A stretch of DNA of 219 bases, taken from the NCBI RefSeq assembly GCF_003334785.1, contig NZ_QOWV01000095.1. One strand, 5' to 3'. Below the pieces are notes generated by a model that worked only from the letters and a program-made list of their open reading frames with translations, was not told where the DNA came from and searched no databases. Origin of the DNA: Escherichia coli. GTDB taxonomy: Bacteria; Pseudomonadota; Gammaproteobacteria; Enterobacterales; Enterobacteriaceae. Positions 1-219 of this stretch are shown here, one piece after another. Both the position numbers and the translations under genes were made by a program. Numbering within the stretch: position 1 is the first letter of the stretch; each line of letters opens with the position of its first letter.

Positions 1-34
1 TAGGCCGGATAAGGCGTTCACGCCGCATCCGGCA
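1..34 (-). repeat. REP element, Y-like (GCCGGATG type), copy 1; left end possibly truncated by the window edge
   Basis: Reverse complement of 1-33 reads gccggatgcggcgtgaacgccttatccggccta, the classic E. coli REP sequence. Imperfect palindrome with outer arms gccggat (4-10) and atccggc (27-33). Confidence 0.9.
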
Positions 35-47
35 GTCGTGCGCAGAT

Positions 48-83
48 GCCTGATGCGACGCTAACGCGTCTTATCAGGCCTAC
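48..83 (+). repeat. REP element, Z-like (GCCTGATG type), copy 1
   Basis: Plus strand reads gcctgatgcgacgctaacgcgtcttatcaggcctac. Imperfect palindrome with arms gcctgat (48-54) and atcaggc (73-79) and inner arms acgc/gcgt, ending in the REP-typical ggcctac tail (77-83). Confidence 0.9.
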
Positions 84-100
84 AAATTCCCGCGCCATCC

Positions 101-135
101 GTAGGCCGGATAAGGCGTTCACGCCGCATCCGGCA
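101..135 (-). repeat. REP element, Y-like, copy 2 (complete, including the terminal G at 101)
   Basis: Identical to copy 1 shifted by 101 bp. Reverse complement of 101-134 reads gccggatgcggcgtgaacgccttatccggcctac. Confidence 0.9.
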
Positions 136-148
136 GTCGTGCGCAGAT

Positions 149-184
149 GCCTGATGCGACGCTAACGCGTCTTATCAGGCCTAC
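149..184 (+). repeat. REP element, Z-like, copy 2
   Basis: Identical to 48-83 shifted by 101 bp. Confidence 0.9.
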
Positions 185-201
185 AAATTCCCGCGCCATC
201 C

Positions 202-219
202 GTAGGCCGGATAAGGCGT
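202..219 (-). repeat. REP element, Y-like, copy 3, partial (truncated by the window end)
   Basis: gtaggccggataaggcgt matches the first 18 bases of the copy at 101-135; the window ends before the palindrome is complete. Confidence 0.8.

Follow-up and report, generated by a model that had tools for sequence, protein, structure and literature searches.

A 219-nt tandem repeat that very probably derives from the mhpE-mhpT BIME-2 array of Escherichia coli

The window, by which we mean the whole 219-nt stretch of DNA analysed here, is a fragment of a tandem array from end to end (positions 1-219). Self-comparison revealed 2.17 perfect copies of a unit with a period of 101 nt at 100% identity, positions 1-101 being identical to 102-202 and positions 203-219 to 1-17. 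This perfect repetition of the whole window was absent from a preliminary finding made from the letters alone (the sequence-only reading). Within each unit, a Y REP with its GTAG tag is followed by a 14-nt linker, and an inverted Z2 REP by a linker of 17 nt. The first Y REP (1-33, + strand) is identical to the corresponding part of the second (102-134), coincides with hairpin 1 of the Rfam naRNA4 model and has lost the first G of its 5' GTAG to the window start, leaving only TAG at 1-3. The second Y REP (101-134, + strand) is complete, and the third (202-219, + strand), recognised by repeat identity, is cut by the window end and consists of the GTAG and the 5' arm only. In both of these the GTAG lies directly 5' of the palindrome on the + strand, at 101-104 and 202-205. 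The Z2 REPs occupy 48-83 and 149-184 on the - strand and thus appear as iREPs on the + strand, where the CTAC at 80-83 corresponds to the GTAG of the first copy. An S-type linker, AGTCGTGCGCAGAT, joins the GTAG-distal ends of Y and Z2 at 34-47 and again at 135-148. A 17-nt linker, AAATTCCCGCGCCATCC, joins the GTAG-proximal ends tail to tail at 84-100 and again at 185-201, and this linker is locus-specific.

On the + strand, the complete Y REP at 101-134, which is of the E. coli group-2 REPtron type, reads GTAG-GCCGGATAAGGCG-TTCA-CGCCGCATCCGGC. The sequence-only reading had described the Y-like element as an essentially exact match to the classic E. coli REP consensus, and the 34-nt sequence GCCGGATGCGGCGTGAACGCCTTATCCGGCCTAC was indeed found at 101-134 with no mismatches and in 0/200 dinucleotide-preserving shuffles. 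As it was written there, the consensus sits on the - strand, the GTAG-first form being on the + strand. Compared with Table 1 of Nunvar 2010, the 3' arm of this Y REP (121-133) is the E. coli-type CGCCGCATCCGGC and not the ..CGCCATCCGGC of Salmonella, Citrobacter and Klebsiella. The Z2 REPs read GTAG-GCCTGATAAGACG-CGTTAG-CGTCGCATCAGGC on the - strand. Their earlier assignment to the GCCTGATGCGACGCT...GCGTCTTATCAGGCCTAC family also held, this pattern being exact at 48-83 and at 149-184 and again absent from all 200 shuffles of the same kind. The Z2 form GTAGGCCTGATAAGACG-loop-CGTCGCATCAGGC is present and equals the Z2 entry in Nunvar's Table 1 save for the loop. The Y REP folded into a lower stem of 7 bp and an upper stem of 4 bp, separated by a 2x2 internal mismatch and closed by a 4-nt loop (-12.1 kcal/mol, z -4.5), and none of 200 shuffles folded as stably as the Y palindrome. 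The Z2 REP folded on the same plan with a 5-bp upper stem, longer than that of Z1 (-12.8 kcal/mol, z -5.3). The Y-linker-Z2 dyad can alternatively form a single 84-nt hairpin (-26.3 kcal/mol, z -4.6).

E. coli REPs are imperfect palindromes of 30-40 nt with a 5' GTAG, and they fall into the types y, z1 and z2 (Ton-Hoang 2012). They are combined into two kinds of composite element, and the BIME-2 family of E. coli is named after the scheme of Gilson, Bachellier and Hofnung. BIME-2 consists of y and z2 in inverse orientation with a short S linker, is arranged in tandem, is well conserved within each locus and varies in copy number between strains, whereas BIME-1 combines z1 with y through a long, conserved L linker carrying an IHF site and is present in single copy (Ton-Hoang 2012). 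In the window, Y on the + strand alternates with Z2 on the - strand, the linker between them is 14 nt long with no L linker or IHF site, and the tandem copies are conserved without a single difference over their 2.17 periods. The REPs are imperfect palindromes with two mismatched stem bases, which form the bulge. BIME-1 (RIP/RIB with an IHF site) resembles the window in pairing a Y REP with an inverted Z-type REP, and differs from it in its z1 type, long L linker and single copies; the Z1 pattern is absent from the window. Pseudomonas REPINs (Bertels & Rainey 2011) are similar in that two inverted REPs are separated by a short spacer and can form one long hairpin, and in their association with a single-copy RAYT/TnpAREP. 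Unlike the window, they belong to another REP family and are dispersed single elements, whereas the dyads here are of Y and Z2 and lie in tandem. The window is thus a member of the BIME-2 family, and its sole peculiarity, the locus-specific linkers, is itself a described property of that family.

To locate the array, we used megablast against complete E. coli genomes. Related copies were found in all 5,426 of 5,426 genomes, at a median of at least 32 places, and the best place reached at least 95% identity in 1,854 of 5,476 matching records. All 219 nt were matched at 100% identity in two records, E. coli XL10-Gold and an isolate from a Norwegian pig. These matches and the other top matches sit in the spacer between mhpE and mhpT, both of which are encoded on the minus strand of the window, so that the element is extragenic as well as high-copy in E. 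coli. A gap of 48 nt separates the mhpE stop codon from the array, and another of ~90 nt lies between the array and the mhpT start. The mhpE-mhpT region is also carried on F' lac-pro plasmids. The RefSeq record of MG1655 has no repeat_region annotation for this spacer. The array itself has already been published, as a rearrangement hotspot (Lin et al.), and the element, its family and its variability in copy number are likewise in the literature.

The number of units at mhpE-mhpT differs between strains, as is expected of BIME-2. Across strains the locus ranges from a lone Y REP, the allele with zero units found for example in O157, up to five units followed by a terminal Y. Both flanks of the spacer are present in 4,829 genomes. 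In a sample of 58 genomes, obtained with a flank-only query and taken evenly down the ranking, 0, 1, 2, 3 and 4 full units were present in 30, 9, 3, 2 and 14 genomes, respectively, and XL10-Gold has 5. The genomes compared unit by unit have 4-5 units, and their internal units differ by 0-3 mismatches within a genome. MG1655 carries a degenerate first unit, three more units and a terminal Y, that is 9 REPs, and it lacks the exact window because its second unit bears 3 mismatches. In the pig isolate, two consensus units follow one another, and the window therefore occurs once; XL10-Gold has one extra unit, and the window therefore occurs twice. XL10-Gold is a K-12 derivative, and of its five units three are identical, whereas the second of the four units in MG1655 has diverged. 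This difference implies a recent expansion or gene conversion in the laboratory lineage.

The two linkers of the window were absent from all of the other 120+ loci compared. The orthologous spacer was inspected in a divergent Escherichia lineage, E. coli SCPM-O-B-8794, which is a separate GTDB species representative with an MhpT that is 95% identical. Its mhpE-mhpT spacer also holds a BIME-2 array, which has a 91-nt period and different linkers and is ~83% identical to the window. The mhpE-mhpT site is an old BIME locus, and turnover or homogenisation of its units has proceeded independently from lineage to lineage. Arrays of 101/102 nt in E. whittamii were considered as orthologues and rejected, as they lie at other loci and have different linkers.

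Nothing speaks against the identification of host and element, and every sequence-level feature of BIME-2 that was checked is present. The window very probably represents an internal segment of the chromosomal mhpE-mhpT BIME-2 array of E. coli, with the origin, the local roles and the value as a host marker that we infer for it below. Three other readings of the repetition are barely credible. The regular spacing of the palindromes and the four ORFs of 22-39 aa that can be drawn through the window might be taken for small genes, a CRISPR-like array or stacked intrinsic terminators. These ORFs span the palindromes on both strands, so that coding potential was rejected, and the region is non-coding in the annotation of every genome examined. 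A CRISPR array was rejected in turn, as its "spacers" would be identical rather than unique. As for terminators, the hairpins are followed by AGTCG.. or AAATTCC.. instead of a T-run, and a terminator scan of the array was empty, the single terminator-like match lying inside the mhpT coding sequence.

The sequence-only reading had concluded from the REP types that the host is Escherichia/Shigella-like. The identity of the window with the E. coli mhpE-mhpT spacer supports this, and E. coli and Shigella have been treated as one REP-bearing group (Ton-Hoang 2012). The exact Y 34-mer was scanned against 100,044 species-representative genomes, which returned at least 120 stretches. At least 94 of these were in Escherichia, in five species representatives with 17, 24, 28, 32 and at least 9 per genome. 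Pseudocitrobacter contributed at least 13 stretches (3, 3 and 8 per genome among the matches listed) and Citrobacter at least 3 (1 and 2 per genome among the matches listed). Among the matches listed, counts of Y were highest in Escherichia, and the equal abundance in distant genera that would have spoken against the earlier conclusion was not seen; its statement that the Y/Z pair is typical of E. coli and its closest relatives stands, with 17-32 exact Y copies in most of the Escherichia genomes and fewer in Pseudocitrobacter and Citrobacter. A stringent megablast search of 72,556 plasmids with one dyad matched 63 records, all 63 of them from Escherichia. A more sensitive blastn search with the whole window matched plasmids of Escherichia (104), Salmonella (8), Klebsiella (6), Citrobacter (4) and Shigella (1); the rows displayed for genera other than Escherichia had either low identity or low coverage.

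Salmonella REPs were compared in 120 kb of the S. Infantis (SARB27) chromosome, which contains 22 REP-like elements. They resemble those of the window in their GTAG tag, in their 5' arms (GCCGGATAAG.. and GCCTGATAAG..), in falling into Y-, Z1- and Z2-like classes and in forming dyads. In contrast, none of the 22 was an E. coli-type Y, Z1 or Z2, and 18 of the 22 had a 3' arm of the type ..CCATCNGGC with one extra C (GCCATC vs GCATC), as ..GCCATCCGGC or ..GCCATCAGGC. The extra-C arm agrees with the entries for Salmonella, Citrobacter koseri and Klebsiella in Table 1 of Nunvar 2010. It is a single-base, genus-wide difference, and it would alter the stem bulge needed by TnpAREP. The best matches of the window to Salmonella chromosomal contigs were ~78-82% identical.

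Pseudocitrobacter presented a different case. Pseudocitrobacter faecalis, P. vendiensis and a MAG were observed to carry E. coli-type Y, Z1 and Z2 REPs together with some of Salmonella type. Contamination and horizontal transfer were both considered for the Y matches; contamination was rejected, as two of the REP loci have core-genome surroundings that share only 78-85% identity with E. coli. REPs of the E. coli types are thus not restricted to Escherichia. The general claim of the sequence-only reading, that REP consensus sequences are species-specific among enterobacteria, is slightly too strong for Y alone, which is also native to Pseudocitrobacter. At a further REP locus, an 8-kb segment of P. 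vendiensis (NZ_CALSBS010000002.1, 127195-135214) is 92-96% identical to the Flag-2 (lateral flagella) island of E. coli. The similarity suggests a recent horizontal exchange of this island between the genera, because 92-96% is far above the 78-85% of core genes.

These data bear on whether the window could itself come from a non-Escherichia enterobacterium with the same REP types, such as Pseudocitrobacter or Citrobacter. Both genera hold exact Y 34-mers (3, 3 and 8, and 1-2, among the matches listed), the Pseudocitrobacter copies stand in native core contexts, and P. vendiensis has two Y-S-Z2 dyads. Nevertheless, such an origin is highly improbable: an E. coli locus matches the window at 100% identity over its whole length, the two linkers of the window are not shared by the other loci compared, the best match among loci outside E. 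coli proper reached no more than 88%, the stringent plasmid records were all from Escherichia, and the Pseudocitrobacter and Citrobacter loci examined showed no BIME-2 units in tandem. The Y/Z2 REP type alone indicates Escherichia or near neighbours, because the Pseudocitrobacter core carries E. coli-type REPs; for E. coli itself, the marker is the exact unit together with its linkers. A short and purely repetitive fragment can thus be assigned to E. coli from its REP and BIME sequence, within the limit that the REP type resolves the genus and near neighbours while the linkers resolve species and locus.

The window was searched against Rfam. RF02564 (naRNA4), whose gathering score is 59.5, matched positions 3-80 and 104-181 on the + strand with 85 bits (E 3.7e-16). 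The minus strand also exceeded the threshold, with 62.7 bits. The other Rfam matches, to plant and animal miRNA families, scored 9-24 bits against thresholds of 44-153 and were dismissed as palindrome noise. The RF02564 family derives from REP325, itself a Y-linker-Z2 array between yjdM and yjdN, and it therefore recognises BIME-2 dyads generally. REP325 is similar to the mhp array in its Y-linker-Z2 dyad, in its multi-copy tandem arrangement between co-oriented genes, in scoring above the Rfam threshold and in its period, which is 100 nt compared to the 101 nt of the window. It differs in its linkers and in its orientation to flanking transcription, and the nucleoid function claimed for it is disputed. 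In MG1655, the Y REPs of REP325 are GTAG-first on the sense strand; the mhp array runs the other way with respect to the transcription that flanks it. Between genes of like direction, BIME-2 arrays can therefore take either orientation, and the two orientations would put different sets of hairpins, REP or iREP, into the mRNA.

The Rfam matches raise the question of whether the units are genes for the nucleoid-associated naRNA4 (CssrE) RNA, which would act with HU to bridge cruciform DNA and condense the chromosome. Both dyads of the window score above the gathering threshold, and the condensation model by HU and naRNA4 was reported for REP325, a similar array (Qian 2015). Against this, RF02564 in effect models any Y-S-Z2 dyad of BIME-2, the minus strand scores above the threshold as well, and the Y-first strand is antisense to mhpE-mhpT but sense for yjdM-yjdN in REP325. 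Furthermore, no promoter-like site was found in the array, and in a 2026 preprint, one of whose authors also took part in the original study, neither compaction of the nucleoid nor contacts between REPs could be attributed to REP325 or naRNA4. We regard this possibility as very unlikely and judged that the window should not be read as an sRNA gene; it is better described as part of a BIME-2 array.

The origin of the BIME-2 array may lie with TnpAREP. This protein, also called RAYT, binds the REP via its GTAG and bulged stem, cuts at CT sites in linkers and at the iREP, and can recombine BIMEs in vitro; of 110 E. coli/Shigella genomes, 74 possess its gene (Ton-Hoang 2012). The sequence requirements of TnpAREP, namely the GTAG, the stem mismatch and CT, are all matched in the window. 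Comparison with the consensus of Ton-Hoang 2012 predicted an iREP type I site, TGCC|TGAT, at 47-54 and 148-155 on the + strand and an iREP type II site, GGCC|TACA, within the CTAC at 77-84 and 178-185 on the same strand. The window is therefore a predicted substrate of TnpAREP as far as its sequence goes. REPs would be non-autonomous relatives of IS200/IS605 ends, with the single-copy Y1 transposase TnpAREP (RAYT, yafM) recognising the GTAG and bulged hairpin and cleaving at CT sites. Tandem expansion and contraction might then arise from TnpAREP-mediated recombination, from replication slippage or from unequal exchange between units.

What the array does between its two genes can be approached by analogy with other REP loci. 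At REP325, the array makes the upstream mRNA more stable and acts as a partial attenuator that depends on Rho, and tandem gene pairs split by REPs show upstream-biased expression genome-wide, with a large, context-dependent spread (2026 preprint). By this analogy, the hairpins in a transcript running from mhpE to mhpT may form a 3'-UTR element that shields the upstream mhp mRNA from 3' exonucleases, and may partly attenuate, in a Rho-dependent manner, read-through into mhpT. A promoter scan found no sigma-70-like promoter in the array or the spacer. Most plausibly, then, the array would be a 3'-UTR stabiliser or attenuator between the mhp operon and mhpT, because it lies 48 nt past mhpE and ~90 nt before mhpT and has neither a promoter nor an intrinsic terminator. 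The opposite orientation of the two arrays with respect to transcription weakens the analogy with REP325. As roughly one in two of the strains sampled carries just one Y REP at mhpE-mhpT, the array is not essential and any role would be modulatory. On the DNA, the array may be a preferred site of gyrase binding and cleavage and a rearrangement hotspot prone to secondary structure; BIME-2 reportedly has the higher affinity for gyrase and is cleaved in vivo (Espeli & Boccard 1997, as cited elsewhere). A bolder proposal is that the 0-5 lineage-specific units act as a heritable dial on the amount of transcription that passes from the mhp catabolic operon into the transporter gene mhpT, and that the REP/TnpAREP system predates or crosses the genus boundary, as its occurrence in Pseudocitrobacter might indicate. 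We hold this combined proposal to be doubtful. If the dial were real, strains would differ in 3-hydroxyphenylpropionate uptake with no change in coding sequence or promoter.

The exact Y 34-mer was also returned from non-enteric assemblies, as at least 10 stretches on short or MAG contigs. They were observed on short contigs in assemblies of Desulfosporosinus, Alkalicoccobacillus, Bacillus coahuilensis and Methylobacterium and in MAGs of Collinsella, Bacteroidales and Clostridiales. All three of the non-enteric contigs that were checked proved to be E. coli DNA (99.7-100% identity), the mhp locus itself being among them. The three contigs therefore represent contamination or misbinning in reference genomes. 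In keeping with what the sequence-only reading had anticipated from a search of this kind, the best exact matches of the window were to E. coli and none of the three non-enteric matches tested was genuinely non-Escherichia. The remaining seven non-enteric stretches comprise five on contigs of 234-807 nt, one on the other Collinsella MAG contig of ~1.6 kb and one on a further short contig, and by analogy with the three we presume these to be contaminants too. In practice, REP and BIME sequence can thus help to spot misbinned contigs or contaminating E. coli DNA in other assemblies.

The window could likewise stem from E. coli DNA contaminating an assembly that bears the name of another organism, or be a collapsed or misbinned repeat contig there, and it would then tell nothing about the labelled host. 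The source is only 219 nt long and pure repeat, much like the 234-807-nt contigs with exact Y REPs in the Desulfosporosinus, Alkalicoccobacillus, Bacillus and Methylobacterium assemblies and the MAG contigs found to be E. coli, and an UNVERIFIED Campylobacter phage record holds E. coli-like DNA as well. We consider this possible but on the unlikely side, and it is compatible with an origin in the mhpE-mhpT array, as the DNA would be from E. coli either way. Scanning of viral contigs for a Y 30-mer gave two uninformative matches. The record MG065686.1 ("UNVERIFIED: Campylobacter phage A18a") has three REP places; its segment 107692-112726, with 50-58% G+C, bears a Z1 REP as well as an exact Y REP of E. 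coli. MG065691.1 was likewise noted. The MG065686.1 record is probably a chimeric or contaminated assembly. Whole-genome contigs of Salmonella Infantis SARB27 were also observed to be filed in a phage collection.
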